From Candidatus Bathyarchaeia archaeon (GTDB taxonomy: Archaea; Thermoproteota; Bathyarchaeia; Bathyarchaeales; Bathycorpusculaceae), in NCBI GenBank assembly GCA_049516875.1, contig JBEKSS010000003.1, positions 160,001-224,000 of the forward strand: a stretch of 64,000 bases of DNA, given 5' to 3'. The notes beneath the pieces are model-generated. The model saw only the letters and a list, made by a program, of their open reading frames with translations, was not told the origin of the DNA and made no database searches. Within the stretch, counting starts at the first letter, position 1. Each line of letters opens with the position of its first letter. Below, piece after piece: positions 818-52,873 of the stretch. The translations under genes were made by a program, and so were the position numbers.

Positions 818-2050
818 ATGGAAAGACGTAGACTTGCAGTATTCGATGTTGAAGGTGTGCTAATTCCTAAAAGGCGCTATCTACTCTTTGAGGTAGGCAG
901 GAAACTTGGCTTTTCGCAGTTTGCAAGAATAGCTTTATATGGAGTATTCTACGAGCTGGGTCTGATCTCACTGAAATCCGCAATGAAGCATGTGTTCAAG
1001 TTTTTCGAAGGTTTCCCGGCCGATGAGCTTCTTCAGATTTTTAGGCAGATTCCATTATTGCCTGGTGTAAAAGAGGTTTTTAGGAAACTGAGCAGCGCAG
1101 GCTGGAAGACCGCGTTGATAAGCTCTGGGTTGCCAACTTTTGTCGTTCGAGATTTGGCGTCAACGCTTGGCGCTGACTATGCTTTCGGTTTTGAGTTGGG
1201 AACGAAAGACGCTGTTGTGACAGGAGAGATATGGGGAGACACTATTGAGCATGAAGGAAAGCTTACGATTTTGAGGAGGATCTTGGAAACCGAGGGATTA
1301 ACCCCAGAAGACTGCGTTGTGGTTGTAGACGACCGAAATAACGCTCCAATAATGCTTCCAAAGATGCTGAAGATAGGCTACAACCCTGATTTTATGGTCC
1401 GTATGAAAGCGGATTATGTAGTGACTGGGGATCCAATCAAAATCCTTTCCATGATTGAAGGTCAACCGAAAAGCCGAAGTTTGCCAACTAAGAATGATGT
1501 CCTTCGAGAGATCATTCATGCGTCCGGCTTCGCAGTACCCGTTCTTTCGAGTCTGATGGGTGTCTACACCATTGCTTACCTCATCTTGTTCGTGACCGCC
1601 TTCTACGTTATCTCCGAGTTAACAATGATGGAGAAAAGGAGCTTGCCAGTAATCTCGTCAATAACTCGCCATGCCGCCACACCAGAAGAACTCTATGAAT
1701 TCCGCGCCGCACCCGTATTCTTTGCTTTCGGAATACTGCTCACTCTACTCCTTTTCCCACGTCCTGCAAGCAGCGCCGCCATTGTGATATTCGCGCTTGG
1801 AGACAGCACAGCTTCAATCTTCGGAAAAATGTTTGGAAAGAAAATACTCTTTTTTAACAAAGGAAAAACATTAGAGGGTTCACTCATTGGTTTCGCTTTT
1901 GCCTTCTCGGCGGCCGCATTCTTCGTGACCCCGTTGAGGGCAGCATCAGGGGCAGCTGTAGCCATGTTGATTGAAAGTCTGCCATTGCCAATAAACGACA
2001 ACCTGGCTGTCCCATTAGTCACAGGAGCTTTGCTGACTTTCATGCGTTAG
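818..2050 (+). CDS. HAD-family (SerB-like) phosphatase fused to a CTP-dependent polyprenol/diacylglycerol kinase-like membrane domain
   Basis: LAVFDVEG, LISSG and VDDRNN HAD motifs; C-terminal REIIH, ALGDSTASIFG, KGKTLEGS and DNLAVP motifs of the dolichol/phytol kinase family. Confidence 0.8.
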   Translation: MERRRLAVFDVEGVLIPKRRYLLFEVGRKLGFSQFARIALYGVFYELGLISLKSAMKHVFKFFEGFPADELLQIFRQIPLLPGVKEVFRKLSSAGWKTALISSGLPTFVVRDLASTLGADYAFGFELGTKDAVVTGEIWGDTIEHEGKLTILRRILETEGLTPEDCVVVVDDRNNAPIMLPKMLKIGYNPDFMVRMKADYVVTGDPIKILSMIEGQPKSRSLPTKNDVLREIIHASGFAVPVLSSLMGVYTIAYLILFVTAFYVISELTMMEKRSLPVISSITRHAATPEELYEFRAAPVFFAFGILLTLLLFPRPASSAAIVIFALGDSTASIFGKMFGKKILFFNKGKTLEGSLIGFAFAFSAAAFFVTPLRAASGAAVAMLIESLPLPINDNLAVPLVTGALLTFMR

Positions 2051-2141
2051 CGCGCGCGAAAAATAGAAAATTCCGAGAATATTCTGTCAGGGTTCGCCAT
2101 AGAAAAATAAAACAACGCGCGCTAGATATCTCCCGCGCGCG

Positions 2142-2761
2142 GTAAGGGTCTCCTGGCTTGATCAGCACAGGTTCCTTGCCGAAGATTCGCATACCCAGTT
2201 TTTGCTTAATAGCCTCCTTAATTAATTCCTGAAGATGCAATAGAAATTTCTCAAATCCTTCTTCGTCCTTCAACATGTACTCGTAGGCAGTTCTGTCGAT
2301 GAAATGGGTTTTGAGGACGTCAAGGAGCTCTTTTTCGTCACCATTATATTTCTCAAACAGTAATTCCTTCAAGTACACCGACGGCTCTTTTGCCTTGGCT
2401 ATTTTTTGATTTGTATTATTCGTCAACCATGTGATATTCAGTACCGAGTCCAATAGATATGGGGATTCTGAGGCAATGGCCCCTTTAGGGAATATGTGAT
2501 GTTTCTGATATGAAGCTGCATGCCCAACCTCCTTTTTCTCTGCAAAATCCCTTGCATGCTCGAGGAAAAATAAGGATAGAATTCCTTTGTAAATGGCGTG
2601 GTAGTGAGACTCCATCTTTGTTAGATCCAATAAATCTATCTGGCGTCTCTCTTGTTCCACGACGGTGGGAACCTGACTTTCATCATCAAACCACGACATC
2701 AGCTCTTTGTAATGTGCACTCATTGTGCTGTCAACCGCGCCGGAATAGGCGTTGGTAAAAA
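2142..2761 (-). pseudogene. Internal fragment of a GmrSD/DUF262-DUF1524-like (HNH) restriction gene
   Basis: VFTNAYSGAVDSTMSAHYKEL...QKHHIFPKG...LNITWLTNNTNQKI; both ends cut at (CG)n runs. Confidence 0.65.
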
Positions 2762-2762
2762 C

Positions 2763-2935
2763 GCGCGCATGTCTGTTTCGAAAATGGTCAAAAATGGTTT
2801 TAATTCCGTTTCGAATTCCCAGAGCCCTGATTGCTTAAAAGAAAATACGAGCATATAGGGAGTACAGAATTGCCCCCAAGCCCGAAGAGAAGAATAAAAA
2901 CCATTTTAGGCCAATTAAGGAACAACCATGCGCGC
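2763..2935. mobile_element. MITE-like element, copy 1 (173 bp, ~44-bp imperfect TIRs ending GCGCGC)
   Basis: GCGCGCATGTCTGTTTCGAAAATGGTCAAAAATGGTTTT ... AAAACCATTTTAGGCCAATTAAGGAACAACCATGCGCGC; homologous to 50884-51057. Confidence 0.75.
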
Positions 2936-3180
2936 CAAAAGAAGTTTAGAATAAGAGAGAAAGTAGGGGACGGCAATTTCCTGAGAAAATGACGAGTTAG
3001 TGTCGAGTTTGTTTGAAACAGGTTTTTCCATCATTTTAGGCTTAAACCACTTTCGCAGGTAAGGCGTGAATTCGGTCAGCAACAGGGCTTGGGGGTTTTT
3101 GTGCGCAGGCTGACGTTGAACAGGTACAACTATATAACGGGTCCTGCCAAGTAGTCACTAGTATTGGACCTTGATGTGAG

Positions 3181-3441
3181 TTGTCTGCGAGCATCTCTTA
3201 CGTTCTTGCTAGATTCGCCTTGTTCTTAGAGCCAATATCACCTCGTTTCATCTCTTTCCTGCTTCGAAGAAGACTCAGTGAATGGGAAAGAAAAGGGCTG
3301 ATTGCAGGGTCCAAGACAAAAACACGAAGAATCGGCAAGTTCCACTATAGAATTGAGGTTGATTTGGATTTGACACAGCAACAGGCCAACCGGATATTGG
3401 CGGTGACGCTGGCTCGAGTATTTAGAAGGTTGAGGAGGTGA
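3181..3441 (+). CDS. Small basic hypothetical protein
   Basis: 86-aa ORF with TATATAA upstream (~3131), coupled to the next ORF. Confidence 0.6.
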   Translation: MSASISYVLARFALFLEPISPRFISFLLRRRLSEWERKGLIAGSKTKTRRIGKFHYRIEVDLDLTQQQANRILAVTLARVFRRLRR

Positions 3442-3445
3442 TGTG

Positions 3446-3601
3446 ATGGTTGAAGAGAAGAAGGGACACGCAAAAATCACCCTCGAAATCGAGTTAAACG
3501 AGGCCTTGATGGAAATCATGAAAGAGGGCATGAAGAACATGCCTCAAATGGGCGGAATGATGCGAAGGATGATGCAAGGAAGAAACAAAGAGAGCGAATA
3601 G
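3446..3601 (+). CDS. 51-aa Met-rich small protein (not in ORF track)
   Basis: GGAGGTG SD at 3434-3440; MVEEKKGHAKITLEIELNEALMEIMKEGMKNMPQMGGMMRRMMQGRNKESE. Confidence 0.7.
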   Translation: MVEEKKGHAKITLEIELNEALMEIMKEGMKNMPQMGGMMRRMMQGRNKESE

Positions 3602-3805
3602 CGTCAGCAGCCCAGCACAACTTCACGCGCTGTTTTTGATGTCTGTTCAACAGTCGAGATGCCTCTGCTACCGCTGGGTATCGCTCAGCCGCCGCACGTG
3701 ATGCAGCAGAAAAGCTGTCGATAAGTCCCAAACGAGTAGTCCTTCTTGCCCGGTGCCTTTCAGAGGGGAAAATGCCGCTTTTTTTCCGGCGCCGAACGGG
3801 CCGCG

Positions 3806-4111
3806 TTACTGTTTTTCGGGCTCTCTCTTCTCTGTTTCCTTTGTCTCGTTCGCGCTTGTTATTTCTTCTATTGGTTTTGGTGGTGGTGTGGTGGCCATGG
3901 TCCAGCCTATCCACGCGCCTATTCCCATTACTGCGGTGAAGGCGATGAACACTGGTATCGCTATGACCCAGAATTGGGCGTTAGAGAGCCATTGAACTTG
4001 CACTCCGAACACCGAAAGCCATTGAGGATAGAAGAGTGTGACTAGGTAGAAGAGGGCTACTAGAACGCAGACAACAGTAATTGCCGCACCGAGTGCTTGG
4101 TCTCTGTTCAA
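3806..4111 (-). CDS. Conserved archaeal two-TM membrane protein (WIGWTMATTPPPKPIEE family), paralog of 12160-12558
   Basis: Two hydrophobic helices plus the conserved motif; GGAGGTG SD upstream. Confidence 0.85.
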   Translation of the reverse strand: MNRDQALGAAITVVCVLVALFYLVTLFYPQWLSVFGVQVQWLSNAQFWVIAIPVFIAFTAVMGIGAWIGWTMATTPPPKPIEEITSANETKETEKREPEKQ

Positions 4112-4218
4112 GAAAGTTTCACCTCCGTGACGTGTTTGGCGATGTGTATTTGTGTTGTTAATGTGAACAATAATGTTTATTAAGATTCACGATTCAGTTC
4201 TTGACTTGATGAAAGATT

Positions 4219-4662
4219 ATGGCAATGCAAAAGGCAACCATGGCATCAGTCGTCGTAATGGTGGTCATGGGCTTAATGGTGAGCGCCCTGGGTGCACTTG
4301 TTGCAACTCGCACGATTTCTAACAGCGGAAGCATTACAGCAGTAGGAGTAGGTGTATACTCAGACAATGCTTGCGCAACTGCGCTCTCCACTATCGGTTG
4401 GGCAACCCTGAACCCCGGCGATGTAAAAACGTACACGATGTACGTGAGGAACGAGGGCACTGTGCCAGTAACCTTGAACATGGCAGTACGTAACTGGAAT
4501 CCCGCATCCGCTTCGAGCTACATTACTTTGACTTGGAACAAAGAGAATTACGTGCTGCCAGCCGGCCAAGTCGTCCAAGCAGTGCTGACCCTCACGGTCT
4601 CATCAGGCGTCAGCGGAGTCACAACGTTCAGCTTCGACATAACCATAACAGGAACACAGTAG
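4219..4662 (+). CDS. Secreted/surface beta-rich protein
   Basis: N-terminal hydrophobic signal followed by a Thr/Ser/Val-rich beta-sandwich-like body. Confidence 0.8.
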   Translation: MAMQKATMASVVVMVVMGLMVSALGALVATRTISNSGSITAVGVGVYSDNACATALSTIGWATLNPGDVKTYTMYVRNEGTVPVTLNMAVRNWNPASASSYITLTWNKENYVLPAGQVVQAVLTLTVSSGVSGVTTFSFDITITGTQ

Positions 4663-4881
4663 TTCCATACGGGGCGCGCAACAGCAGTAATATCGGAAAC
4701 CAGAGATGGTGCTGAGAATCAAGAAGGGCAGCTTCTTTTTGTTTCTGTTAGTGATTCAACGACTGACGAGTACCGGCGCGTTGGTTCCTGTCGCGCGCGG
4801 TTGAAACGACTCGCGCGACCTCTATGTTGACGTTAGCATTCCATAAATGCGAGTGGCCACTTCCTCCTGCGGCGAGTTTCG

Positions 4882-4950
4882 TTACGCTGCAACTATTATC
4901 TCGTAAATGCGTATGGCGACTGTTGCCAAGAAGAGCAGGCCCGTTGCTAG
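4882..4950 (-). pseudogene. 3' fragment of a paralog of the 5573-5758 membrane protein
   Basis: LATGLLFLATVAIRIYEIIVAA* aligns with LTMGILFLTTVTIHIYTIIAST*; begins at CTAGCGCGCGCTAG. Confidence 0.65.
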
Positions 4951-5029
4951 CGCGCGCTAGGTTTAAGGTACAAACGAATTAGTTGAAGGACCGCCGAAAA
5001 TTTTAAATCGGCATCTACAATATGTACTT

Positions 5030-5290
5030 GTGGTGTTTTATTTGGTTAAAGTGAAGAAACATTCGGGAGCTACGCAGGATTTCGATAAGGCAAAACTTAA
5101 AGCTTCTGTTAAGAAAGCTGGAGCTAAAGAGGAACACGCAACAAAGGTTGCCGACAACGTTGCAAGTAAAGTGAAGGAAGGAACGGTGACTGTCGAGATA
5201 AGGCGATGGTGTATAACCGAACTTAGACCACTAGACCCCAAAGCTGCAAAAGCCTACGAGACATTTGAAAAACCAGCAAAGAAAAAGTAA
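5030..5290 (+). CDS. Stand-alone ATP-cone domain protein
   Basis: VKKHSGATQDFDKAKLKASVKKAG...EIRRWCITEL...AAKAY pattern typical of ATP cones; T-rich terminator follows. Confidence 0.8.
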   Translation: MVFYLVKVKKHSGATQDFDKAKLKASVKKAGAKEEHATKVADNVASKVKEGTVTVEIRRWCITELRPLDPKAAKAYETFEKPAKKK

Positions 5291-5447
5291 GTCTAGCCAA
5301 AAATCCAGATACTTCTCTTTTTTTAGAAAAGTCACTTCTGAAGGGTTAATTCTGTCTAATACAACAGTGCGCTAAACAGTATTTCTATTTAACAAAATTC
5401 ATAAACAAAGAACTATAATTATTTGTTCTTAGCGAGGTTTGAGCAAG

Positions 5448-5486
5448 ATGCCAAAGAGCAAGAAGAAAAAAGGAAAGAAGAAGTAG
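5448..5486 (+). CDS. Candidate 12-aa lysine-rich micropeptide MPKSKKKKGKKK
   Basis: GAGGT SD-like at 5434-5438, AT-rich promoter-like sequence upstream, stop followed directly by GCGCGCGC. Confidence 0.35.
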   Translation: MPKSKKKKGKKK

Positions 5487-5572
5487 GCGCGCGCTCCTGG
5501 GTTTGCGGCGGAAAAGCTGTCGACAAGTTCAGACTGGGCTATAAGCTGGAAAAAAGCAGCTCGGCTGATGCT

Positions 5573-5758
5573 TCACGTTGACGCTATTATCGTGTATATG
5601 TGTATGGTCACTGTTGTTAGGAAGAGTATTCCCATCGTGAGTGCTGCGGCTTTCAGTTTCCTCGAGTCTATCAGCAGCGTTGCGGGCCCGTCGTATGCTG
5701 ACACGAGCTGAGCGGTTATGAGGAGTATTATGGAGGTTGCTGCGAGCCAGAGGCTCAA
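5573..5758 (-). CDS. Small two-TM membrane protein (original start codon possibly mutated)
   Basis: Hydrophobic ORF; upstream in-frame QVPLDFWN preceded by GCG rather than ATG/GTG. Confidence 0.6.
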   Translation of the reverse strand: MSLWLAATSIILLITAQLVSAYDGPATLLIDSRKLKAAALTMGILFLTTVTIHIYTIIAST

Positions 5759-5788
5759 GTTCCAGAAGTCTAAAGGAACCTGCGCTGT

Positions 5789-6423
5789 CTAGTCCTCCAG
5801 CATTCCGTATTGGATGGTTGTCGTCTGGTCTGACGTGGTTTCTTCTTTTTGTATGACTATGGGTTTTCCAGTTGCTTTGGCTAGGACGCAGGCTAGTGCG
5901 CTGGACAGGGGGGAGCCTACTGTTTCATGTGCCCTTCTTAGCTTGGCTGTTTCTTCGCAGAGGTGTATGAATATGTGTTTGGCGATTCTGATGGTTGCGG
6001 TTGTGTCGTTTGCTTCTATGATTGTGTCTTTAGATATTTCGAACTTCTCGAAGAGTCGTGGGAGTTCCTTCTGGAGATATTTCAGGTCGGTTTCCGTGAA
6101 TGAAACGTTCCGTTCCTTCTCGAACAGCCTCGATAAAGCTAAGCCGGGCGGCGTGAGATAGATGCCGTCTGGCTTCTTGGAGTAGAGTTTCTCCATGTCC
6201 ACTTCTTCCCGTTTTGGCAGGCCAGCTTCAGCGTTTGAAGGAACAAACACTAGGCTGGACCTGTAGTCTTTCAGGAGCTTTGGAGGCAGATAGACGCCTT
6301 TCGCAGTCGAGCCCGAGCTTGTGAGTATTCTTTCGATGTCCGCGAAGCTTGAGATACCTGTTGCCGTCAGCAGGTCCAGTCTCACGCGTTTGGACGGGAC
6401 GAGATAGAGCAGGAGGGCCCCCC
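5789..6423 (-). pseudogene. 5'-truncated archaeal membrane-associated hypothetical protein
   Basis: Protein-like from WGALLLYL to GSPLSSALACVLAKATGKP; the N-terminal part of ORF 5789-6523 looks non-coding. Confidence 0.55.
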
Positions 6424-8043
6424 ACGGATAAGAAAAATTCAAGCAGCAGATGGTCTGACAACTAGCCTCTTTTCGCCTTCCTCCTTTCTCACTTAACCCT
6501 GAATAACCAAGGTAGAACAACATATTGAGGAATACTGTATTAAAAACTAATGGAACTTAGTTCTATAACATCAACACTGTAGGCTGTGCCGACTCTACGT
6601 ATCAAATGATTCACAGAGCCCGAGCAAACACGACCGTCAAGAAGCATTAACAACAACAGTTATCATCATCTGCCCAAAATGTCAGCATAAGATACAGAAA
6701 AAACACGCTAAACAGCATATCCCAGATGCTCCGATACTGCTGCAACGCTACAAGAAGAAAACAAGGAACTAAAAGGAAATTTGGACCGCCTCAAAACGAG
6801 ATACGACGAACTTGAACGTCAACATCAAGACGCCGTAGACATGAGACTCCGAGATCCCACGGTCAAGTCAAACAGTCAGGAGCCACCAGAGTGTAAGTTT
6901 TAAAGGCCTTATCAGCGCGTGCGAATACCCCAACAATCCTAAAACACAATATCTGGTCAAGGGCCCATGCTAACACTTCGAAAGCAAATTGAAAATCCCA
7001 GAACGCGCGTGCACCTACGATTTCCAAAATCAATATGCGCATTGTTCAATCACTGAGGAGAGCACCAGCTCCCTTTTTCTGTGTATGGAAAGCAGGCGCA
7101 AGATCGAACTTGTGCTTAGCGCGCTATGTGCTGCGAAGCTTCGTTTGTTCATCTGCTTTTCGCATGAAATCCATAATCATTGGTTGCATGGCTTCAGGAT
7201 ATCGTCTAATGCATGCATTCCCTTCAGATGGCTTCAAGAAACATTGTACTAGCTTCTTTTGCAGGATTTCCTGTTGAACCTGCCTTCTAACTTTCCAGCC
7301 AAGCTTAATGCTTTCGGCAGCTTTGACGTCAAGCAGTTTAACCCTTTTCTGTTTCTTCATACCCCAACATCCTGTGCCATCACAATTCTATATCGTAAAT
7401 CTCAATAAAGCACTTCTTTCAGCTTTCGATATGTATCAAAAACCGGAATATCAGAGTTGTCGGTTGCACAATGAAATGGACGGCGCGCGCGGTAGGCTGA
7501 TCCCTGATTGAGACTCAGTGCCTGTTCTTTCATATTCGACTTTCAGCGCGCTTCTTAACATGGTTACCGTGCTTATCAACGGTAAATACTACGGCTAAAC
7601 AAGCTTCTCATAACCCGAAGCGTCAAATTGACTATGCAAACCAATATTGCATACTCGCTCATGGGACAAAATGCAAGGCTGCTAACAGAATTGTGGAAAC
7701 GACGAAAAAGCAAAGCCGCGAATGAATTAATGTTGGTTCTCCGTTACGAGCTTCTGAGAATTGTGTGCGAAATGATTTGGGATCTAAATTTGCTCAAGAC
7801 GTCCATACTTGTAACCAAAACGCCATGGACTACACTCAAGTGTCTATCTCGCAAGCACGTTGGCCGCAAGCGCGCTAGCCACGCCTCCGTCAGCAATGTG
7901 AAAGAGAGAATGCTCGGAGCAGCCAAAGACATTAAAGAAAATTCGCTTCGGGCTTTGATCCAGTTCGTCGATCACCGCTAATGTCGTCTATACCTAAGCT
8001 CAAAATGAAGTGTTCGCAGTGCGACTGATGGAACAGCGCGCGC

Positions 8044-8290
8044 TCTTTCAACGAAAAAGCTAGAGAAGAATTCGGGCACCATTCTAGGTTTGCCCACGTT
8101 CTACCAGACTCCTGAGGAACTGATTCTGGCAAAGCTGCGCAGGACAAAGGCCACCGTTACTCGAGAAAGGGCTCTAAAGGACGAGGAAGACATGAAAGCA
8201 ATCTTAAGTTCACCAAAGTAAACGTCCTCAGAAAAAAAGAGTCAAGGAACAACACACTTTCAATACTCACAGACATACTCAAAGAAACAA
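8044..8290 (+). pseudogene. 3' fragment of a nucleotidyltransferase homologous to 33241-33795
   Basis: LSTKKLEKNSGTILGLPTFYQTPEELILAKLR...KDEEDMKAIL vs LSNKKFQKRTGTVAGVQTFFQTPEDLISAKLR...KDKEDVRAIL; starts right after GCGCGCGC. Confidence 0.8.
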
Positions 8291-8437
8291 AAGGCCAGCG
8301 CAAACAGACGTGTGCACGCTGGACGCACGTGGATGAGCGGCCGCTTAATCACGGTTGCAACATATTGGTTTCAGCCAAACCTTAAGGGGAGATGTATCCC
8401 GCAACTGCCTTCTTTTTTATGCAAAGCTTCTGAATCA

Positions 8438-9706
8438 TCACTGGAAGGTATGTGACTCCAAGATTTTGTCGATTCGTTCTACTCTTTCTTTCTCGTTGTT
8501 TCTCGTCGCGCTTGCTCTCCAGCTCCATAAGCACTTTCTTAAACGTTCTGTCTCATCTTTGTCCAACCTGCTTAACTCTATTGAATTGAAGAGGTTCTGA
8601 AATTCGATTGGTGTCCAAGTCTCGATTGCATCTACAACAAGCGTGTTCATGATCTTTGGGTCGTATCTTTGTAGCCTCTGAATAATGCCCAAAGCGTCAC
8701 TTTTTTCTTCGGTTGAAAGAGTAGAATACATTCTGTGGATTCTGTCCAGAAACAATTCTTTCATCTTTGCATTTACCACTTCGTCCCTTCTCCCTGACAC
8801 TATCGATAGAATGTCGAGACAACGCTTTCTCATTGTTTCACTGTTGCATTCATTTTCCAGAGCAGATAGTAAGGCTATGACGTTGCTTCGGATACTGTCA
8901 GGCATTCCGTCGTAGGGCAGGTAAGTAGTTTGATGCCGTATGGTTTCCAAGATTTTCTCCTTCGTGTCTCTTTCCTGAATATCTTTGAATATGGAGATGT
9001 TGGAAGAGAATCTCTTTACGTCGAACTGGGATTCATATCTGGTTTCCGGCAGCCAGACCATTTCTTGGCCTATCCTGGCGCCAAATCTTTTCAAGGTTTC
9101 AAGTACAGACTGCGATTTTCGGTGCGGAAGCAGTATTGATGCTATTCCCGTTCTTTTTCCACCCAACTCGTTAACGAGCCCCTTCATTTTGCTGGTGTAC
9201 ACCTTTCCTTTGAATGATCTTCTGGTTTCATATCCGTACAGTGCCCTCTTAACCTTCATTTTGTCTGACGAGCTAAGATTCGTCAATTCATAGTGGATCA
9301 ATACGTGTGGAGAGAACCCGAGCTTGTTGTCCAGCATTATGATGGGTCTTCCGAAGAGCAGGATGCCTTCTCTCAAGAGTTCTTCGATGAATTGACCATC
9401 AAGCTTGTCGAATCTTATGTTGGAGAAAACAAGCTGGATGTTCCTGTCAAATCTCTTCTCCAAGTCTAAAGCGATCTTGGACACTTTGCCTCTTTCGTCC
9501 AGTAGGTCTGGATCCTGTTCCGTGTCCAGAACTACCAGGAAGTCTATGTCGCTTCTTGCGTCTGCTTCTCCTTTAGCAACCGATCCAAACAGGAAGACGC
9601 CATATATGTTTGGCATGCTTGAGATTTGTTTCACAAATTCAAAAACAGCATCCTGAAACTGTTCCTGCAAACGGACCATCCTAATACAGTATTGCGGGGC
9701 GTCCAA
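8438..9706 (-). CDS. MNT (Pol-beta) nucleotidyltransferase with additional central and C-terminal domains
   Basis: LFGSVAKGEADARSDIDFLVV (GSx10DxD) motif; 422 aa. Confidence 0.85.
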   Translation of the reverse strand: MDAPQYCIRMVRLQEQFQDAVFEFVKQISSMPNIYGVFLFGSVAKGEADARSDIDFLVVLDTEQDPDLLDERGKVSKIALDLEKRFDRNIQLVFSNIRFDKLDGQFIEELLREGILLFGRPIIMLDNKLGFSPHVLIHYELTNLSSSDKMKVKRALYGYETRRSFKGKVYTSKMKGLVNELGGKRTGIASILLPHRKSQSVLETLKRFGARIGQEMVWLPETRYESQFDVKRFSSNISIFKDIQERDTKEKILETIRHQTTYLPYDGMPDSIRSNVIALLSALENECNSETMRKRCLDILSIVSGRRDEVVNAKMKELFLDRIHRMYSTLSTEEKSDALGIIQRLQRYDPKIMNTLVVDAIETWTPIEFQNLFNSIELSRLDKDETERLRKCLWSWRASATRNNEKERVERIDKILESHTFQ

Positions 9707-9707
9707 T

Positions 9708-10076
9708 TTATGGGTTTTGTAATACTGTATTGCAAACGCTTTCTATTCTTTTCATAACATCTTGAGCCCGTTGGAGCTGAGGACCATCGATTCTGCCACC
9801 ATATGCTTGACCAGGACGAATTTGATTTTCAAGTTCTTGGAAAGCTCGCCACACTAATTCAGAATTCTCTCCAAAAACGCTTTCGTGTTCGTTTATCATT
9901 GATCTCACGTTGCTATGCTTGTTTATGTGCAACCCTTCCTTTGCCATGCATGCCTCAATCAAGTGAAAACACGCCTCGAATATTGTCTCGATTCTGGTAG
10001 GGATGGAGTTCTGTTCGTTCTCAGAGTCTCGCTTGAACATTCCGTATTTCTGCAAATAAACGTCTTGGGAGGCCAT
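9708..10076 (-). CDS. HEPN-like protein (partner of the adjacent MNT)
   Basis: Helical ~122 aa with FEACFHLIEA, H and RPGQAY motifs; directly upstream of the MNT. Confidence 0.7.
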   Translation of the reverse strand: MASQDVYLQKYGMFKRDSENEQNSIPTRIETIFEACFHLIEACMAKEGLHINKHSNVRSMINEHESVFGENSELVWRAFQELENQIRPGQAYGGRIDGPQLQRAQDVMKRIESVCNTVLQNP

Positions 10077-10303
10077 GTTATATACAGTATTGCGAACAAA
10101 GACCACTTAATCCTTTCTGTATACTGTATAACGAATTTCTGTGGGTACCAAAGACAACAGAAGCGGAGACGTCTCCTACGAACACCTTTTTCTCTGTCGA
10201 GTTTCAACGCATTATTCTCGTCTATCAGAAATGCACGATTGTTGGATGCCAGTGTGACGAATGGGATATGTGTTATATGCTAAGGAAACAAAATCGCGCG
10301 CGC

Positions 10304-10369
10304 CAAAGCACCAACGCTTACGCTGATGTTCTTGGCCATCGAAATCAGAAGAGCACAGATTCCTTTCAT
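10304..10369 (-). pseudogene. Truncated 5' copy of the DUF123 gene at 1-480
   Basis: MKGICALLISMAKNISVSVGAL vs MKGIYVLLVSIAKNISVRVGGL; ends at CGCGCGCGC 10295-10303. Confidence 0.85.
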
Positions 10370-10378
10370 GTCTTTCTA

Positions 10379-10483
10379 TCAATGCCTCTGCTCATACCAT
10401 TTCAGAATTTCTTTAACGGCACTGTCCGAGTAGCCTGTCTCTCTAAGCTTTTTTTCAAGGTCATTGAGAGTCTCAACCTTCAA
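10379..10483 (-). CDS. 34-aa small helical protein (TTG start, not in ORF track)
   Basis: MKVETLNDLEKKLRETGYSDSAVKEILKWYEQRH, amphipathic, same orientation as flanking genes. Confidence 0.5.
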   Translation of the reverse strand: MKVETLNDLEKKLRETGYSDSAVKEILKWYEQRH

Positions 10484-10587
10484 GCCGGGGCACCATCCAA
10501 CAAAGAGCTTTACTAGGCATATCCTATTTATCCTTTGACCCGCGTGTCGATACATGCCTGCACTTTCGGAAGAAGCTTTGCCTAATG

Positions 10588-11685
10588 CTACTTCAGATAG
10601 GACTCTGGCCTTTCGAAGTCAAACTTTTTGGCCTTAAGCACTTTGGTGGCGAACCGAAGAATCTGTTTGCGCACTTTTGTTGACAGGTGTGGATACCACA
10701 GGGGTGAGGCTAGGACGAGGCTGCGCCAGGCGTAGAAGGGTTGGATCACGGTTAGGATTTCTTCGTCGTCAGTCTTGTCCAGATAGTTCCGCCAGAAGAG
10801 CCGAAACAGCCTCTCGAACGGCGTTCCGATAATCTCTCCGAATGCTTGCAGGGAATAGAACAGGTAGTTTATGGTCATGGTGCTCACGTCGTCGGCGGGT
10901 TCACCCCACTCGCCTCCTTTGCGGTCCAGCACCGTGAAGTCTAAGCCCTGCCTGAACATGACGTTCCAAGGGTGAAAGTCTCCGTGCACCTGCGACAGCC
11001 TGTGAACCTTGCGTCTGAGCCGCCAGCGCCACTCCACACACGATTTCTCGAGATTAACAAAGAATTTCTCATCAGCGTACTCTAGACCGCTCGGATAGCT
11101 GTCCGTCAACCCGAAGATTCCCTCGCCGTGCCCCAGCAAATCGCGCACACGCCTAACATACAGTCCCGGCGAATCCTTCTTCTTAACCGAGTGAATCCCA
11201 ACAAGATAGTCGGACAGAGCTAAACAGCGCTCCTCATCCAGACCACTCACGTCGCAGACCACCCTAATCTTATCCAAGTCAGCATGGTAGAGCACACCAT
11301 CAACAAACTCGGTCAGAATGAAGAACTCGCAGCAATCACCCAACGACTTAAGCGTCTCACCGTCACCCGTGAACGAACCGACGTCAACGGAACGCACGTG
11401 CCGGGGCAGCTTGTTAAACGTCGAATGCTGCATCAGCAGAACCGCCGCACGGTCAGCAAAGTGATCATGCCCGAAACCCTCCTGCCGCAACGTCTCCAAA
11501 ACCACATTCCGAGTCTCCCCTCCCACGCTGAACTCTATCAAGCACGGCACACCATAACCGAAACCCTTCAACTCCTCAGCGCCCTCCGCCCCCTGTAGCG
11601 GAACGACACGAGAAACCTCCACAGGTTCCTTGTACACGCATGAAAGATACTGCTGCACCCGCTCAACCTTCAACTCCAACAACAA
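10588..11685 (-). CDS. Aminoglycoside phosphotransferase/choline kinase-like phosphotransferase
   Basis: QVHGDFHPWNVMF...VLDR Brenner-type motif. Confidence 0.85.
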   Translation of the reverse strand: MLLELKVERVQQYLSCVYKEPVEVSRVVPLQGAEGAEELKGFGYGVPCLIEFSVGGETRNVVLETLRQEGFGHDHFADRAAVLLMQHSTFNKLPRHVRSVDVGSFTGDGETLKSLGDCCEFFILTEFVDGVLYHADLDKIRVVCDVSGLDEERCLALSDYLVGIHSVKKKDSPGLYVRRVRDLLGHGEGIFGLTDSYPSGLEYADEKFFVNLEKSCVEWRWRLRRKVHRLSQVHGDFHPWNVMFRQGLDFTVLDRKGGEWGEPADDVSTMTINYLFYSLQAFGEIIGTPFERLFRLFWRNYLDKTDDEEILTVIQPFYAWRSLVLASPLWYPHLSTKVRKQILRFATKVLKAKKFDFERPESYLK

Positions 11686-11792
11686 ACCTCACCGGAACAA
11701 CAGGTGCCAAACAACGGTTAAAAACATAACGATGCGTGCAGCCAACGATCAGAGAAAATCACCCTTGAACACATATGTCGCAGCGCTCGCGA

Positions 11793-11990
11793 GATTGAGC
11801 CTCAAAAGAATCACGGATTGAGTACTCAAACACAAGGACGCCAACTCTAACATGAGAAACTCAGCATGCCGAAACTTTTGACACTCAAAAACCTCGCAGA
11901 ATTGAGTAGAAAAACCTTCAAACCAACATGCTTCAACAATGTTTTGAGGCTCAAAGAAATCACGGGTTGAGTACTCAAACACAAGGGCTC
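11793..11990. repeat. Dispersed palindromic repeat family B, full copy
   Basis: Two CTCAAA(A/G)(G/A)AATCACGG(A/G)TTGAGTACTCAAACACAAG units around a degenerate central unit; homologous (inverted) to 58430-58650. Confidence 0.85.
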
Positions 11991-12159
11991 ACACGTCGAC
12001 ACACCAAAGCGTGCCTTCTCAATAAGAAAACTCTGCGCTTAACACTTGCTAAAGCCAAAACCAGATCCAAGCAGACTATTAGCTGGATGTCAGTTAGTTT
12101 CCAAAATAAGACATGGGCGGAAACAGCTTTCCAGAAAATAGAAGGTTAAGAAGCAGTTA

Positions 12160-12558
12160 CTAGGTCTTCCGCTTCTTTTCGGGCTTCTTCTCTTCTCCCA
12201 CCTTAGGCTGCTCAGGCTGCTCCTCTTCAACGGTCGGCTTCCCTTCCATCGTCGGCTTCTCTTCCGCCACAGGCTTCTCCTCAACCGTCGTTTTCTGCTC
12301 TGTTTCCATCTCACTCGTAATCTCTTCGATGGGCTTCGGAGGCGGTGTCGTGGCCATCGTCCAACCTATCCAAGCGCCTATGGCCAATATGGCGATGAAC
12401 GCTATGAACACTGGAAGCGCTACGAGCGTGAACGAGATATGCCACACGCCGGAGTCCAACCAGTACCCCCAGTAGAACAGTCCGAGACTGTAGAGCACGC
12501 CTATTACCACGCAGACCGTGCAGATTAATCCGCCAATCGCTTGATCTTTGCTAACCAT
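12160..12558 (-). CDS. Conserved archaeal two-TM membrane protein with charged tail, paralog of 3806-4111
   Basis: WIGWTMATTPPPKPIEEI motif. Confidence 0.85.
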   Translation of the reverse strand: MVSKDQAIGGLICTVCVVIGVLYSLGLFYWGYWLDSGVWHISFTLVALPVFIAFIAILAIGAWIGWTMATTPPPKPIEEITSEMETEQKTTVEEKPVAEEKPTMEGKPTVEEEQPEQPKVGEEKKPEKKRKT

Positions 12559-12632
12559 TCACATATCACCACATATTAGCCCTTTTTATGGCTCTAAGAC
12601 CTTTTAAAGTTTACCGTACCTCTTGATATTTG

Positions 12633-13889
12633 CTAACTTGTTCCCGACTCCCACGTCGTCAGATACGTCTTCTGCTCCTCGGTCAACTCGTCTATCCTAA
12701 TTCCCATCGCGTCAAGCTTCAGCCTCGCCACTTTCTCGTCAATCTCCTTGGGCACCGGGTAGACCTTCGGCTCCATCCTTCCCGCCTTGGCCAAGTGTTC
12801 CACGCAGAGAGCCTGGTTCGCGAAAGACATGTCCATGACCTCCGACGGATGGCCCTCCGCCGCCGCCAAGTTGACAAGCCTGCCCTCGGCCAGAAGGTAC
12901 AGTCTCCTGCCATCCTTGAGAGTGTACTCGTCCAGGTTGGGCCTTATGTTCCTCTTCGACGTTGCAAGCTCTTCAAGGTACTTCGGGTTAACCTCAACGT
13001 TGAAGTGTCCGCTGTTGGCCAACAACACCCCGTCCTTCATCCTCAGCATGTGCTCCTTCCTGATGACGCTCGTGTCGCCCGTCGCCGTGACGAACACGTC
13101 GCCCACGACAGCGGCCTCCGCCATGGGCATCACACGCAGACCGTTCATAGCCGCTTCAAGAGCCCTCGTGGGGTTCACCTCGGTGACTATGACGTTTGCG
13201 CCCATCCCCTGCGCTCTCAGGGCTATGCCCCTTCCGCACCAGCCGTAGCCGCAGACAACGAAGTTCTTGCCCGCGAAGAGAACGTTTGTGGCCCGTAGAA
13301 TGCCGTCCAGAGTGCTCTGGCCGGTTCCGTAACGGTTGTCGAACAGGTACTTCGTGTAAGCATCGTTCACGGCGATTATCGGGTACTTGAGGGCTCCGTC
13401 CTTCTCCATGGCTCTGAGCCTTAAGACGCCGGTTGTGGTTTCCTCCGTGCCGCCTTTGACGCCCTGTAGGAGTTCTGCTCGTTTGCTGTGGAGTGTGCCC
13501 ACGAGGTCGGCTCCGTCGTCTAGGGTGATGGTGGGCTTGGTGTCCAGCACTTTTTCTACGCACCAGTAGTACTCGTCGGTGGTTTGGACGCGCCAGGCGT
13601 AGACTCTGGTTCCTTCTCGTGCCAGGGCGGCTGCGACGTTGTCCTGTGTTGAGAGGGGGTTCGACCCGCACAGTGCGACGTTTGCTCCGCCCGCGAGGAA
13701 TGTTTCGACGAGAAATCCGGTTTCTTTGGTCACGTGCAAACAGGCGGCCAGCATCAAACCCATGAGGGGCTTCTCCTTGGCAAACCTGTTTTTGATCTGG
13801 GCGAGAACGGGCATGTGTTTCGACGCCCATTCGATTTGTAAGCGTCCTTCAGGAGCCAAACTCGCATCCTTAACCTTGAAGTCCTCCAT
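12633..13889 (-). CDS. ahcY: S-adenosylhomocysteine hydrolase
   Basis: [53 protein letters not shown] motifs. Confidence 0.98.
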
Positions 13890-13964
13890 AAACGTTTCAC
13901 TCTCCCTATGTCCATTTGCCGTTTGCTATATAAAACTAAGCGTCTAAAAGTCTGCAGCTTGTGA

Positions 13965-14037
13965 TTGTCATGTTGGGTTTCGAGGCCTTGTGTTTGAGTA
14001 CTCAATTCGTGTTTTTTTTGAGGCTCAATTCGTTGAG
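13965..14037. repeat. Repeat family B, single-unit copy (inverted)
   Basis: TGTTGGGTTTCGAGGCCTTGTGTTTGAGTACTCAATTCGTGTTTTTTTTGAGGCTCAAT joins the left and right flanks of the 58430-58650 copy. Confidence 0.8.
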
Positions 14038-14351
14038 CAACGGGCGCTTTGAGGGAATAGGGGCGATTGCGTTTTTTTTTGTCTTTGGTGTTTTTTTCTG
14101 CATCTTTTTTCGTCTAAAGCGGTTCGTAGCTTGAGTGATGGATGTTATGGTGTCTGGAGGCCGCGGGGAGAAGTCTGGCTGCGTTGCATGAGTCATGGTG
14201 GACGGCGAGTTTGTTGGAGTTCATGTGGATGCTGTGACAACGGTTGATAACTCTGAAGCTTGGCATGTTAAGGCAAACTTTTATGGGTGAAATAGTCAAC
14301 GGAGATCAGCTTCCAAGTTTGCAAAGAGGAGCATGGAACCTATCAGGTTAA

Positions 14352-14558
14352 GATAATGGACAAACAGGCACCATAACCGTCGTTCCGGAGTTGCCATCCC
14401 TGTTAGGCCTGCTAATGTTGTTAGCATTGTTGACTGCATTAGTGGTCTATGCGAAGAGAAGATCCAGAGTGAAACAAGGATTACCCAAAGAAGGTTCTAA
14501 GACTGACGGAACCATCTTCCCATCAGCTTCTTCAGCAGACGATGCTGTTTACGTTTGA
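14352..14558 (+). pseudogene. C-terminal remnant of a PEF-CTERM-type surface protein
   Basis: TITVVPELPSLLGLLMLLALLTALVVYAKRR; in-frame TAA immediately upstream. Confidence 0.6.
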
Positions 14559-14875
14559 AAATTGCTTAGCGTCCGCTTGGGTATGCTTCTCCCCTAGATA
14601 GAAAAAGCGAGCGCGCGCACTTTTTGCCGACTCTACTTTAGCATGTTACTCATGTTTTTGCAGAACTTGCACGCGATCAATCACTCTTCTCTATTCTATC
14701 TGTTTTGTCCTTGATTCCACTGTAAGCTTCGTGCGCTGTGAAGAGAAGGCGGCTGATTGTTAGTCGGTGATCTGGTTGTAATCTGTTCTTTTCACATTCG
14801 AGTTGAGGTGTCTTCCGGGCAACCTTCTTTTTAGTTGCACTTGAGCGGGTCCTTTGGAGGGCTTGCTACGGTGTA

Positions 14876-33795: not shown

Positions 33796-33796
33796 C

Positions 33797-37105: not shown

Positions 37106-37438
37106 TTACTTGCCAAACATGGATTCTACGAAAAGGTGAACGTTTTCGATGTTGAGCAGAATGTTCGTGATTTTTTCTTCTCCCTTCTTGGTTAGTTTGT
37201 AGACCCTCTTTCTGTTGACCACGATGCCCTCCACAAGTTCTTTTCTCTCCATAGCGTACATCACTGAGTATACAGTGCCAGGGGAAGGAAGCGTGTAGAA
37301 CTTTCTGCGAAATGAAGTGATAATGTCATAGCCGCTCATACCTGCACTGTTTCTGAGTTCTTTCAAGATTACAAGATCCATAAAACTTCTGATAAGCCGT
37401 TCACGCAACTCTTCAGAAATCCTCCGCAACATGTTCAT
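37106..37438 (-). CDS. PadR-family transcriptional regulator
   Basis: MSGYDII...SPGTVYSVMYAMERKELV...RKRVYKLTKKG. Confidence 0.88.
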   Translation of the reverse strand: MNMLRRISEELRERLIRSFMDLVILKELRNSAGMSGYDIITSFRRKFYTLPSPGTVYSVMYAMERKELVEGIVVNRKRVYKLTKKGEEKITNILLNIENVHLFVESMFGK

Positions 37439-37527
37439 CAGACTCCGAATGGAACTCGGAATTGTGTTTTCAAAGTTTATTTGACTTTCGGTGCAAAAAA
37501 ATACAAAAAATGGCAAAAAGTGAAAAG

Positions 37528-50883: not shown

Positions 50884-51057
50884 GCGCGCATGCGTGTTCC
50901 GAAAATGGTCAAAAACGGTTTTAATTCCGCTTCTAGATTTTAGAAGGGCCAGTTGCTACGATGAAAATAGGGATATGCGCAGGGTTCAAGATTATTCTCA
51001 AGCCTCAAAAGAAGAATAAAAACCATTTTTAGCCATTTTAGGAACAACCATGCGCGC
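50884..51057. mobile_element. MITE-like element, copy 2 (174 bp)
   Basis: GCGCGCATG...CATGCGCGC ends; colinear similarity to 2763-2935. Confidence 0.75.
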
Positions 51058-51183
51058 TAAGAATGTCGCTATCAACCGAAAGTTTCCATGAACCCCAATC
51101 AATCGAAGACTACCCAGAACCGTCTTTAGAAAGCTTTAATTCTTGCAGGATTTTCTGTCATAAAAACAAAAAGGCGAAACGGA

Positions 51184-52248
51184 TTGGCTGGTCTAGGTCA
51201 GTTGAAGTTTGCCATGGGCACAGGCATATTCCTCACAGCCTTCATATTCGCTGCTTTCCTGGCATTAGTGCTGTTCATCATCCAAGTGTTCGTTGCCCCG
51301 TTGACCCTGAGTTTTGACCTGATTCTCGTAGTAGCCCTTCCACTCCTCTTCGTACTGTTTCAGTACGCCATCGGGCCCTCAATCGTGAAGATGTCAACAC
51401 ACCTACAATACCTCAAGCCGGGTGAAAACCCGTGGCTCGAATCCACCGTAAAGGACCTTGCGGACAAGAGCAAGGTGCCCATGCCGCGGCTGGCCATCGT
51501 CCCAGACAACACGCCCAACGCCTTCGTTTTCGGCCGAACCTCCCACTCGGCCACGCTGGCAGTCCACCAAGGACTGCTGCAAAACCTGAACGAGGACGAA
51601 GTTAAAGGCGTAATCGGCCACGAACTAGGACACATAAAACACAAGGACTACGCCATTATGACGTTGCTTTCCGCGTTGCCGCTAGTGGCCTACCTTGTTG
51701 CACGTGGAACAATGTCTGCAGCATGGTTGTCAGGCAGATCTTCGAGAGAAAGAGACCAGGGCGGCATAGAAGCGGCCCTCATCATCATCGCCGTACTGTC
51801 GTTCGTAGTCTACTTCATCTCACAACTGAGCGTAATGCGCCTCAGCAGACTGCGGGAACACTACTCAGATGCTTACTCCGCCTACGTGACGGGTTCGCCT
51901 AGAAGCTTGGAAAGCGCTCTCACAAAAATCACGTATGGCCTGTCCCTCTCACCGAAACCGCCCTCAGGAGTCCGAGCGTTCTACATAAGCGACCCGGTGC
52001 AGGCCAAGCAGGAAATACATGAGATCATCGACAAGAGGGATGAGTACGACTTGGACCACGACGGCGTACTGAACGAGAAAGAGTTGGAGTTGGCCATGGA
52101 GAAAGAGGCCAAGTCTACGTGGAAAACAGTCAACACGTGGTTCTCAACCCACCCGCCAACCTTTAAACGCATAATGCTGCTGCGCGAGATAGAGCAAGAA
52201 ATGCAGAGTGGAAAATACACGAACGACCGTGTCTACGCGCACGTTTAG
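51184..52248 (+). CDS. htpX: HtpX-family M48 zinc metalloprotease with EF-hand-like insert
   Basis: PNAF, HELGH, SRLRE, STHPP; DLDHDGVLNEKE. Confidence 0.92.
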   Translation: MAGLGQLKFAMGTGIFLTAFIFAAFLALVLFIIQVFVAPLTLSFDLILVVALPLLFVLFQYAIGPSIVKMSTHLQYLKPGENPWLESTVKDLADKSKVPMPRLAIVPDNTPNAFVFGRTSHSATLAVHQGLLQNLNEDEVKGVIGHELGHIKHKDYAIMTLLSALPLVAYLVARGTMSAAWLSGRSSRERDQGGIEAALIIIAVLSFVVYFISQLSVMRLSRLREHYSDAYSAYVTGSPRSLESALTKITYGLSLSPKPPSGVRAFYISDPVQAKQEIHEIIDKRDEYDLDHDGVLNEKELELAMEKEAKSTWKTVNTWFSTHPPTFKRIMLLREIEQEMQSGKYTNDRVYAHV

Positions 52249-52651
52249 TCACACGAACGCCAAGATGTTTGCTGCGGAGAAAAAGCTGATTGAAGGGTGA
52301 GGTAGGGAGACCTAAAAAAAGGGATTAAGAAAAAAAGGGATTCTATTGTCGTGAGGGGTCTTTGCTTCCTCGGCACTTTCTAAGACCATCTTAACTATGG
52401 TTGCAAAGCCGCCTATCGACGCGATAAGCGCGCCCATGATGACCCCCGCGAATACGCAATCTTCCTTCGCTCTCGTCCATGTGGTAGAGTCTGAAGGCCT
52501 CGGACAACCGCGGACAGTGAACCTTTTCCCCCTGAAAGCGTCGCGCGCTAACAGTCTTTTCCATCTAGGACCTCAAGAGTTAACAGAACGCATCCAGCAC
52601 ATCTTCATAAGAGCCTTGATCCGATGCACTCTTGCCTTTCGTGTCCATTGC

Positions 52652-52720
52652 AGGGTTTTGACACTCAAAGAAATCACGGATTGAGTACTCAAACACAGGG
52701 TCTCGAATTTCAACATTCCA
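52652..52720. repeat. Repeat family B, single-unit copy
   Basis: TTTTGACACTCAAAGAAATCACGGATTGAGTACTCAAACACAGG. Confidence 0.8.
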
Positions 52721-52873
52721 ACCTTTCGAGATGATGTTCCTCAAATGCCATATGATGCGCTTTCGCGAAGGGCAACAGAAAAACTGGTAACCACAGAAAA
52801 CGCGCGCGTCCTCAAGCTGATCGACAGTTGGAGATATATATGTAAAACAACTATGCATTCTGTGGTGTTACGA

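Follow-up and report, generated by a model that had tools for sequence, protein, structure and literature searches.

The locus and its CG runs

The window analysed here is a 64,000-nucleotide (nt) stretch of the genome of a Candidatus Bathyarchaeia archaeon (positions 160001-224000 of contig C3 in the assembly referred to below as G000). It carries an excess of short alternating CG runs, and the subject of this report is the element behind most of them, the palindromic octamer GCGCGCGC. An earlier note on this DNA took such runs for self-complementary (CG)n linkers at the breakpoints of gene fragments and proposed a new end-joining or cassette-shuffling system. The analysis presented here tentatively favors a different origin, in which the solitary octamers would be scars of insertion sequences (IS) and MITEs (miniature transposable elements with inverted repeats) of the IS5 family.

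The G000 genome comprises 2.43 Mb in 20 contigs at 47.2% G+C. Genes were approximated by a greedy open reading frame (ORF) proxy of at least 100 amino acids (aa) rather than by a gene finder, and these ORFs span 81% of the genome. Chance expectations for the window were obtained from 100 dinucleotide-preserving shuffles. The cross-species sample was a 777-kb part of G004, a genome from the same genus; identity to G000 in this comparison is approximately 80-87%. Motif and gene families were surveyed in 61 related genomes (G000 and 60 relatives). Strains were compared using contigs from the public sequencing runs X4, X5, and X8 and the metagenome loci L172, L173, and L174. The window stretch occurs in 24 public sequencing runs among the matches listed, seven of which hold at least half of the sampled words; low-depth parts of a 14-kb stretch in some of them were left out of interpretation.

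The left end of the window is occupied by a variable island (497-10302), recognized as such because the genes to the left of 491 and to the right of 10308 are adjacent in four same-genus genomes, where the island is missing between the same flanking genes. It is bordered by an 83-nt direct repeat (414-496 and 10303-10385, 84% identical) and interrupts the 5' end of a gene in which DUF123 is fused to a kinase, an arrangement that would fit an integrating element carrying its own version of the gene start. The island ORFs that were scanned yielded no integrase or recombinase family. A HAD/CTP-transferase block lies on the plus strand of the island (772-2055; ORF 734-2050). Further to the right, a 7568-8044 block meets a 5'-truncated gene fragment (8044-8319), whose homologue in G021 is the 3' part of a 185-aa ORF. 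The last block, 8044-10301, lies between two runs and contains a nucleotidyltransferase gene (8438-9706, 422 aa) and a HEPN gene (9708-10106, 132 aa), which are a probable toxin-antitoxin or defence pair. The pair gives weak PADLOC matches to the candidate systems PDC-S09 and PDC-M05, and it is present in some strains and missing from others. A "GmrSD fragment" had also been proposed for this region, but the six ORFs tried between 2040 and 7981 returned no Pfam or PADLOC family.

The window contains 15 alternating CG runs of at least 8 nt and 40 of at least 6 nt. The 14 extragenic runs of at least 8 nt described earlier, together with the one in thyX, were all recovered, as were the 13 cited runs of 6-7 nt; the window total for this shorter class is 25, the others starting at 4812, 7004, 7119, 18837, 30793, 33605, 35477, 45180, 45381, 46869, 52428, and 55573. 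The full palindrome CTAGCGCGCGCTAG is present twice, at 4947 and 32355.

Within the island, the first long run (GCGCGCGCG, 2050-2058) directly follows the TAG stop codon of the HAD/CTP-transferase ORF. Stop codons had been reported before the runs at 2050, 5486, and 32358; that at 2048-2050 ends a listed ORF, whereas the other two do not. The run at 2134-2141 (CGCGCGCG) has no block boundary within 10 nt, and none was found at 4792-4799 (CGCGCGCG), which is kept in strain locus L172. The 6-nt run CGCGCG at 4812-4817 has a longer allele, CTGCGCATACG, in L172, X5, and X8, a complex 5-nt difference. The run at 4950-4957, inside the first copy of CTAGCGCGCGCTAG, lies at a seam; a strain-level breakpoint is found 10 nt from that at 5487-5494 (GCGCGCGC); and no boundary coincides in the window with that at 7483-7491 (GCGCGCGCG), the relatives G004 and G002 reading CGCGCGCGC at their own copies of the 7568 boundary. 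The run at 8036-8043 marks the seam between the 7568-8044 block and the truncated fragment, and the run at 10295-10303 forms the right edge of the 9.8-kb island, adjoining a truncated 5' copy of DUF123.

Outside the island, solo runs occur upstream of pyruvate kinase in intergenic DNA that does not align (14611-14618), in another intergenic region (28317-28325), inside the second copy of CTAGCGCGCGCTAG (32358-32365, 60 nt from a conserved block), beside a solo MITE end (33204-33211, 45 nt from a conserved block), and downstream of a GNAT ORF (37075-37083). In the same GNAT ORF, which starts at 36500, the Acetyltransf_1 Pfam match stops at about residue 112-113, at profile position 84 of 116, where the sequence reads GCGCGC (36836-36841). 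The run at 52801-52808 (CGCGCGCG) falls in the 5' part of a 123-aa AsnC-type ORF. The last, at 53786-53793, lies inside thyX (Thy1, 53273-53971), a conserved gene whose G004 orthologue reads GCGCGAGC at this position, and belongs to the chance-level class discussed below.

A single exact octamer

The runs clearly exceed a dinucleotide-aware background, as the earlier note had supposed from a simpler estimate. GCGCGCGC occurs 12 times in the window, compared with a mean of 0.72 and a maximum of 4 in the shuffles, and CGCGCGCG occurs 8 times, compared with 0.72; neither count was reached in any of the 100 shuffles. In the whole genome, GCGCGCGC is the most over-represented octamer, ranking first under Markov orders 1-3, with 447 sites against 24.6 expected (18-fold) and a density of 184 per Mb.

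The element is one exact palindromic octamer and not a generic (CG)n tract. There are 416 maximal alternating runs of at least 8 nt in G000, 212 of which are exactly GCGCGCGC and 28 CGCGCGCG. The run-length histogram is non-monotonic (204 runs of 7 nt, 240 of 8 nt), with almost none above 10 nt, and microsatellite slippage was rejected because the lengths peak at 8 nt and stop above 10. The flanks show a preference of the form A_T or TA_TA: the adjacent positions are A and T in 66% and the next are T and A in 41%, and beyond 3 nt on either side the sequence is random. A longer repeat or MITE body around the runs was rejected on account of these random flanks. No enriched extension word follows the runs of at least 8 nt in the genome, 34 of the 416 touch the end of a within-genome repeat, and 6 lie inside a self-alignment.

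The same specificity is seen among words consisting of eight G or C letters between TA and TA, 23 of 32 of which in G000 have the GCGCGCGC form. For TA(GC)nTA, the observed and expected numbers are 13 and 15.8 at n = 2, 9 and 0.88 at n = 3, and 23 and 0.05 at n = 4. Among one-mismatch variants of the 12-mer, 77 of 87 differ at one of the four flank positions, and the one-mismatch excess of the octamer itself falls from the outer to the inner positions (125, 76, 52, and 28). As a separate observation, GATCGATC is also over-represented in non-coding DNA (62 against 3.2 expected, both strands).

Taken as a proposal for untemplated addition of CG repeats, the earlier reading does not agree with these data: lengths peak at exactly 8 nt, the element is one exact octamer instead of a set of variable-length tails, and a new end-joining or cassette-shuffling system with CG tails is thus left unsupported. 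An enzyme that adds CG tails is not needed.

Confinement to non-conserved DNA

Genome-wide counting by coding class against a Markov background gives an octamer excess of 83-fold over the order-1 expectation in non-coding DNA and 4.6-fold in the ORF proxy. The suggestion that runs avoid genes holds as well, since 329 of the 416 runs of at least 8 nt fall outside ORFs or at their edges. Spacers between tandem, divergent, and convergent genes carry the motif at similar densities (0.73, 0.69, and 0.83 per kb), which is not how a terminator or promoter element would behave; such a role finds no support. The runs are also clumped. Of 232 bins of 10 kb, 94 contain none and 27 contain five or more; the 27 run-rich bins are 72% coding with 45.4% GC, and the 94 empty ones are 86% coding with 47.7% GC.

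The most telling result on location is the contrast between aligned and unaligned DNA in G004. The alignable part of the 777 kb contains 8 copies of GCGCGCGC against 6.2 expected, whereas the non-alignable part contains 174 against 2.4 expected. Consequently, the excess resides entirely in lineage-specific DNA. Counted as runs, 8 lie wholly within aligned and 153 wholly within unaligned DNA. When 15 orthologous run pairs were aligned, 12 were ungapped with 1-4 substitutions, three had small gaps, and none showed a clean insertion of the run. These pairs fall in the chance-level class and are thus of little help in explaining the origin of the excess.

Among the surveyed genomes, the word AGCGCGCGCT occurs 98 times in G000, 29-115 times in four other genomes of the same genus, 63, 53, and 45 times in three other genera of the family, and 23 times in one genome of another family in the same order; most of the remaining relatives have 0-1 copies. 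A reversed-sequence control gives 0-8 throughout. The motif is therefore common to this genus of Bathyarchaeia and to some related genera.

A lineage-specific palindrome of this kind recalls HIP1 (GCGATCGC), the highly iterated palindrome (HIP) of cyanobacteria reportedly described by Robinson et al. in 1995. By analogy, a repair or conversion bias, or selection, could create GCGCGCGC by substitution, the likeness to IS tips would be coincidental or adaptive, and the numerous copies would then act as microhomology for deletions. This account is unlikely, although several observations speak for it. The octamer is GC-rich, palindromic, and the top over-represented word; its one-mismatch variants deviate preferentially at the first and last positions, as reported for HIP1 in PMC4390886, which also ties HIP1 to excision and site-specific recombination; 12 of the 15 orthologous pairs differ by 1-4 substitutions without gaps, with no clean insertion among the 15; and the CGCGCG at 4812 is CTGCGCATACG in three other sources. 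Those 15 substitution pairs, however, represent the chance-level background and not the excess class, and conserved DNA carries no excess (8 against 6.2 expected), although a genome-wide bias should load coding DNA too, as HIP1 does. Moreover, 94 of the 232 bins lack a run even though about 14% of their DNA is outside the ORF proxy. The density of 184 per Mb is also below the 500-2500 per Mb given for HIPs in Elhai 2015 (PMC4390886).

The earlier note had suggested looking for genes whose presence correlates with the signature, and no polymerase, ligase, or restriction gene tracks the motif across the 61 genomes. C5 methyltransferase (PF00145) has no match in G000, G001, G003, G004, and G021 and a sub-threshold match in G002 (19.4 bits), which may further speak against a HIP1-like origin. 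PF01555 is nearly universal and is consequently uninformative, and PF01986/DUF123, present in 45 of 61 genomes, bears no relation to the motif. G000 does encode an MvaI/BcnI-family restriction endonuclease approximately 1.3 kb from an N4/N6 DNA methyltransferase (contig C8, 44521-47578). The MvaI/BcnI type (PF15515) is present in 4 of the 61 genomes, one of them motif-poor, and does not track the motif, so the pair lends no weight to a HIP1-like bias.

Seams and strain-level junctions

Cross-species alignments of window positions 1-20000 break at 2045, 4948, 8044, and 10308, and a run is found at each of these positions. Homology thus stops at the runs at 2050, 4950, 8036, and 10295, as well as 10 nt from the run at 5487, and it continues through those at 2134, 4792, and 7483. 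By a hand tally over several comparisons, five of the eight island runs have a block end within 10 nt. The claim that runs mark breakpoints is consequently borne out in part: it stands for 2050, 4950, 8036, 10295, and the GNAT position 36836, and it fails for 2134, 4792, and 7483. At their own copies of the boundaries 5372, 5572, 5598, and 7568, the relatives have a run or an IS end.

Between 27500 and 38800, only the 7-nt run at 32029 lies within 10 nt of a cross-species block end, those at 32358, 33204, and 37075 being 45-240 nt away. Of the 136 non-coding runs in G004, 12 have an alignment end no more than 5 nt away, compared with 4.4 for random non-coding places, and random placement reaches 12 in 3 of 1000 trials. 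The remaining 124 lie farther than this from any alignment end, so that most runs are at no detectable seam. Breakpoints thus coincide with runs in several comparisons, but this does not extend to most runs.

At the seam marked by the run at 8036-8043, two unrelated homology blocks abut at 8044, yet relatives already read GAGCGCGC there, and the run is thus mostly templated (7 of 8 positions). The earlier note had inferred that runs were added at junctions; the intact DUF123 copy does lack the run, in line with that view, but the 8036 case is not, and it also tells against untemplated tailing. Nor was a cut gene confirmed on the left side of this junction, since the 7568-8044 block holds an intact 117-aa ORF of the same size in a relative.

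Independent assemblies confirm the subset of runs at breakpoints as real seams of a block mosaic. X4 contigs are identical to the window over 1955-2808, 4311-5000, and 7176-11837, and the junctions at 2050, 2134, 4792, 4950, 7483, 8036, and 10295 are therefore not chimeras. L172 and L173, which are 98% identical, show no difference at the covered window runs of at least 8 nt. That metagenome contigs span the junctions without differences, that no shuffle reached the observed counts, and that the motif is present in all four other same-genus genomes and in further genera while the reversed control gives only 0-8 together make chance, or an assembly or amplification artefact, an extremely improbable explanation.

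Other strains differ at or near the runs. A 27-nt indel (4959-4985) starts right after the run at 4950-4957 in X5 and L172. In the same two sources, 5478-10356 is replaced by approximately 430 bp: the sequences diverge at 5477, 10 nt before the run at 5487, and rejoin at 10357, with GCGCGCG 8 nt from the right break in L172. Contigs of X8 join 8043 to 10302, between two runs of which one is kept, and the nucleotidyltransferase-HEPN block is accordingly missing. Another X8 contig joins 2050 to 3128 without a run, with a short side of 26 nt, and in yet another a 15-nt filler stands between 8041 and 10345. The sides of the first two of these X8 joints measure 25-26 nt with 88% likeness, and both joints were flagged as unreliable. 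Overall, three of eight strain-level alignment ends lie within 10 nt of a run of at least 6 nt in either sequence, compared with a background of 1.2% of genome positions and 4.2% of non-coding positions.

The HAD/CTP-transferase block is at another locus in L174, which is 97.8% identical over the HAD gene and whose locus is syntenic to G000 contig C5. Alignment of L174 9228-11600 with positions 88700-92900 of C5 places the HAD/CTP-transferase gene next to a tRNA gene in an insert of approximately 2.4 kb, apparently between the direct repeats CGGAACTCTT and CGGAACT...CTTTT. This insert looks like a separate integration event.

Such mobility of blocks could be explained by sequence-specific breakage and joining at the octamer, performed by an IS5-family transposase acting on solo tips or by another recombinase or nuclease. 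Gene blocks, the HAD gene and the nucleotidyltransferase-HEPN pair among them, would be cut out, deleted, and re-inserted, and islands would be mosaics with an 8-bp seam; the likeliest agent would be the IS5-family transposase, with solo tips as surrogate ends and no untemplated CG tailing. We regard this as quite unlikely. In its favor, an X8 contig that keeps a single run lacks the 8044-10301 block, which has a run on either side; the HAD block is bounded on the right by a run or MITE tip and on the left, in L174, by GGCGCACGCGCT; two of the four large joints outside the 11.8-kb repeat and the MITE interior touch a run (2050 to 3128 and 8043 to 10302); the joint from 5477 to 10357 ends 10 nt from a run, and the filler joint from 8041 to 10345 starts in one. 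The sharply defined octamer also suggests recognition by a protein. On the other hand, the island ORFs scanned include no integrase or recombinase family, 124 of the 136 G004 runs have no alignment end within 5 nt, and the X8 joints depend on the short, flagged sides described above. Blocks do not recur as run-bounded repeats, with repeat-end contact at 34 of 416 runs, nor is a special enzyme required to delete the DNA between two 8-bp repeats.

Link to an IS5-family element and its MITEs

GCGCGC, the first six bases of the octamer, is also the outermost tip of the terminal inverted repeats (TIRs) of an IS and its MITEs. Two copies of the 174-bp element termed MITE-A are present on the plus strand of the window, at 2763-2935, with a TIR that starts with GCGCGCATG, and at 50884-51057, with TA on both sides. 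A solo MITE-A terminal repeat, also on the plus strand, lies at 33073-33120. In G000, copies are 174-185 bp long, and approximately 36 ends start with GCGCGCATG, most of them flanked by TA. Exact matches to the tip number 34 in G000, 44 in G004, 19 in G021, 11 in G051, 1 in G003, and 0 in G044. A second MITE family of 303 bp has the tip GCGCGCTGSC, which is shared by the IS of G000 itself (contig C7, approximately 36805-37916).

The autonomous form is represented by a 1082-bp element on contig C7 of G002, which encodes a 328-aa DDE_Tnp_1 and DUF772 protein (profile matches to PF01609, at 1.2e-23, and PF05598); the G000 IS encodes a 45%-identical homologue. IS arms are clear at six of nine loci (score 34-48) and start with GCGCGC or TAGCGCGC; these loci are in G002, G044 (two copies), G051, G021, and G005. 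Arms in G029 start with CGTGC, and those in G046 and G008 are weak (score 18-20) and lack such a tip. A full-length transposase homologue is present in eight of nine genomes with at least 20 copies of AGCGCGCGCT, compared with approximately 4 of 46 with at most 4 copies, although this co-occurrence is not a clean statistic because the genomes are kin.

Two comparisons place an element end and a run at corresponding positions. At the HAD stop codon, L174 reads GTTA followed by GCGCGCATGGGTGTTCC, a MITE-A end, where the window reads GTTA followed by GCGCGCGCG, a solo run. In G021, an IS end is found where the window has TTAGCGCAC at 5372. The first of these gives direct support to one of the origins listed in the earlier note, namely footprints of a GCGCGC-ended MITE family.

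The ends of complete MITE-A copies also raise the reverse relationship, in which an octamer of other origin would be the preferred insertion target of the IS and MITEs and the outer GCGC would be duplicated target. Of 16 such copies, 11 have TA beside the left end and 14 beside the right end, and the outer four bases are GCGC on both sides in all 16. Because TA and GCGC are both palindromic, a target duplication is indistinguishable from the terminal repeat, and imperfect MITE tips do not separate the two. IS5-group elements make 4-bp duplications of palindromic targets, and insertion into TAGC[GCGC]GCTA would give the observed TAGCGCGC-ATG...CAT-GCGCGCTA. Against this, the G029 tip is non-palindromic and inverted at both ends, TA flanks are much commoner at MITE ends than at solo octamers, and the origin of the octamer would be left unexplained. 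On balance, this relationship is improbable.

Origin of the solo octamers

The explanation we favor, at a probability of about 0.45, is that the solo octamers are scars of an IS5-family IS/MITE clade that have been reused as microhomology. Elements with GCGCGC tips would have inserted and later been lost, either by excision or by deletion from tip to tip, leaving solo GCGCGCGC scars. The resulting 8-bp GC-rich repeat could then provide microhomology for additional deletions, such as one between 8036-8043 and 10295-10303. A scar origin would account for the excess in non-conserved DNA, the clustering in gene-poor islands, and the seams at block borders. The figure is only 0.45 because the step that gives exactly 8 bp is inferred and because several motif-bearing genomes have few or no elements.

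A number of observations weigh against a scar origin. At the HAD stop codon, L174 and the window have the left flank alone in common. Neither filled and empty MITE site pairs between G000 and the 777 kb of G004, nor a site with both flanks conserved showing empty, filled, and scar states, were found. G003 has 69 motif copies but a single MITE-A end, and there is no transposase match in G055, G041, and G023, which have 23, 16, and 11 motif copies. TA is commoner at MITE-A ends than at solo runs, where T occupies the second flank position on 41% of the sides. Deletion between two GCGCGC tips predicts a 6-mer, but the TA-flanked 8-mer is commoner (23 against 9). A 4-bp GCGC target duplication kept twice after excision would give the longer word, although this is weakened by the non-palindromic CGTGC tip of G029, a single case. 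The one-mismatch excess is biased outward, which is not uniform neutral decay, and only 34 of 416 runs contact a repeat end. To our knowledge, neither IS4/IS5-type transposases nor their eukaryotic PIF/Harbinger relatives are known for such footprints, and we know of no cleavage pattern that leaves exactly 4+4 bases.

Comparison with known systems

The octamer shares several properties with HIP1 and other HIPs as portrayed in PMC4390886: it is a GC-rich palindromic octamer and its genome's top word, with a lineage-specific and patchy occurrence, an outer-position mismatch bias, and ties to deletion or excision. The same source describes a repeat module that inserts precisely into HIP1. By comparison with HIPs as characterized there, the octamer has no excess in conserved or coding DNA and a density approximately 3-10 times lower. 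It also differs in its archaeal host, in the lack of an identified cognate methyltransferase, and in being identical to an IS/MITE tip.

The elements themselves resemble the IS5 family (DDE_Tnp_1, PF01609) in their transposase, their inverted repeats of approximately 20-45 nt, and their non-autonomous copies of 174-185 bp, and those found here prefer non-coding DNA. Unlike in described IS5-family members, solo 8-bp tips far outnumber elements (447 against approximately 36 MITE-A ends); hundreds of solo tip copies are not known to have been described for this family, and a literature search found no such description.

Footprints of Tc1/mariner elements and Stowaway MITEs (PMC4561436) offer a parallel, being short end residues that stay between the target duplications at former insertion sites and build up in harmless places. 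Such footprints are heterogeneous, whereas one exact octamer dominates here; the transposase family also differs from Tc1/mariner, and its eukaryotic relatives (mPing) are reportedly precise excisers. The octamer is thus unlike HIPs in spread and density and varies much less than known footprints do.

Integron attC sites, Xer-dependent dif modules, and repetitive extragenic palindromes (REP/BIME) are similar in that short palindromes lie at the borders of exchangeable blocks or in intergenic DNA. These sites are 20-140 bp long, with internal structure and a dedicated recombinase or RAYT gene. In contrast, the conserved site here is 8-12 bp with random flanks beyond 3 nt, and, unlike in integron arrays, no integrase family was found among the scanned ORFs of the island, nor was a RAYT gene. 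No published description of the GCGCGCGC motif was found in a literature search of limited breadth, restricted to main texts.

Other features of the window and genome

A second dispersed repeat family of approximately 70-90 nt has the core TTGAGTACTCAA, and GAGTACTC is among the top over-represented octamers. Its copies in the window lie at 11792-11858, 11941-12007, 13959-14048, 52655-52721, 58423-58512, and 58572-58661. Over 11676-12142, the summed contig depth is 20-25 times that of the neighbors in all four sequencing runs.

Two paralogous pairs, 32426-32947 with 35939-36448 and 30428-30591 with 33616-33779, are 80-89% identical and approximately 3.5 kb apart, which suggests a segmental duplication amid AbiEii-like and HerA-like genes. 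The 120-nt periodic repeat at 29021-29920, within a PQQ beta-propeller gene, represents ordinary blade repeats. Rfam and tRNA scans of the window returned one tRNA-Arg and nothing else. Elsewhere in the assembly, the last 122 nt of contig C7 are identical to the first 122 nt of contig C8 and contain TAGCGCGCGCGCT, and the two contigs therefore probably adjoin.

Biological meaning

If recombination were active at the octamer, gene blocks would be moved from a site of unusually small size, and the archaea concerned would possess a minimal-site cassette-shuffling system. If the solo octamers are instead scars, they would constitute a cheap, readable record of past mobile elements in uncultured Bathyarchaeia, and a single IS clade would shape much of the variable genome. 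The octamer would then be a marker by which core and accessory DNA could be told apart in metagenome bins. The long-unexplained HIP1 of cyanobacteria would moreover have an archaeal counterpart with a traceable source, which could help to test for an origin of some highly iterated palindromes from transposon ends.

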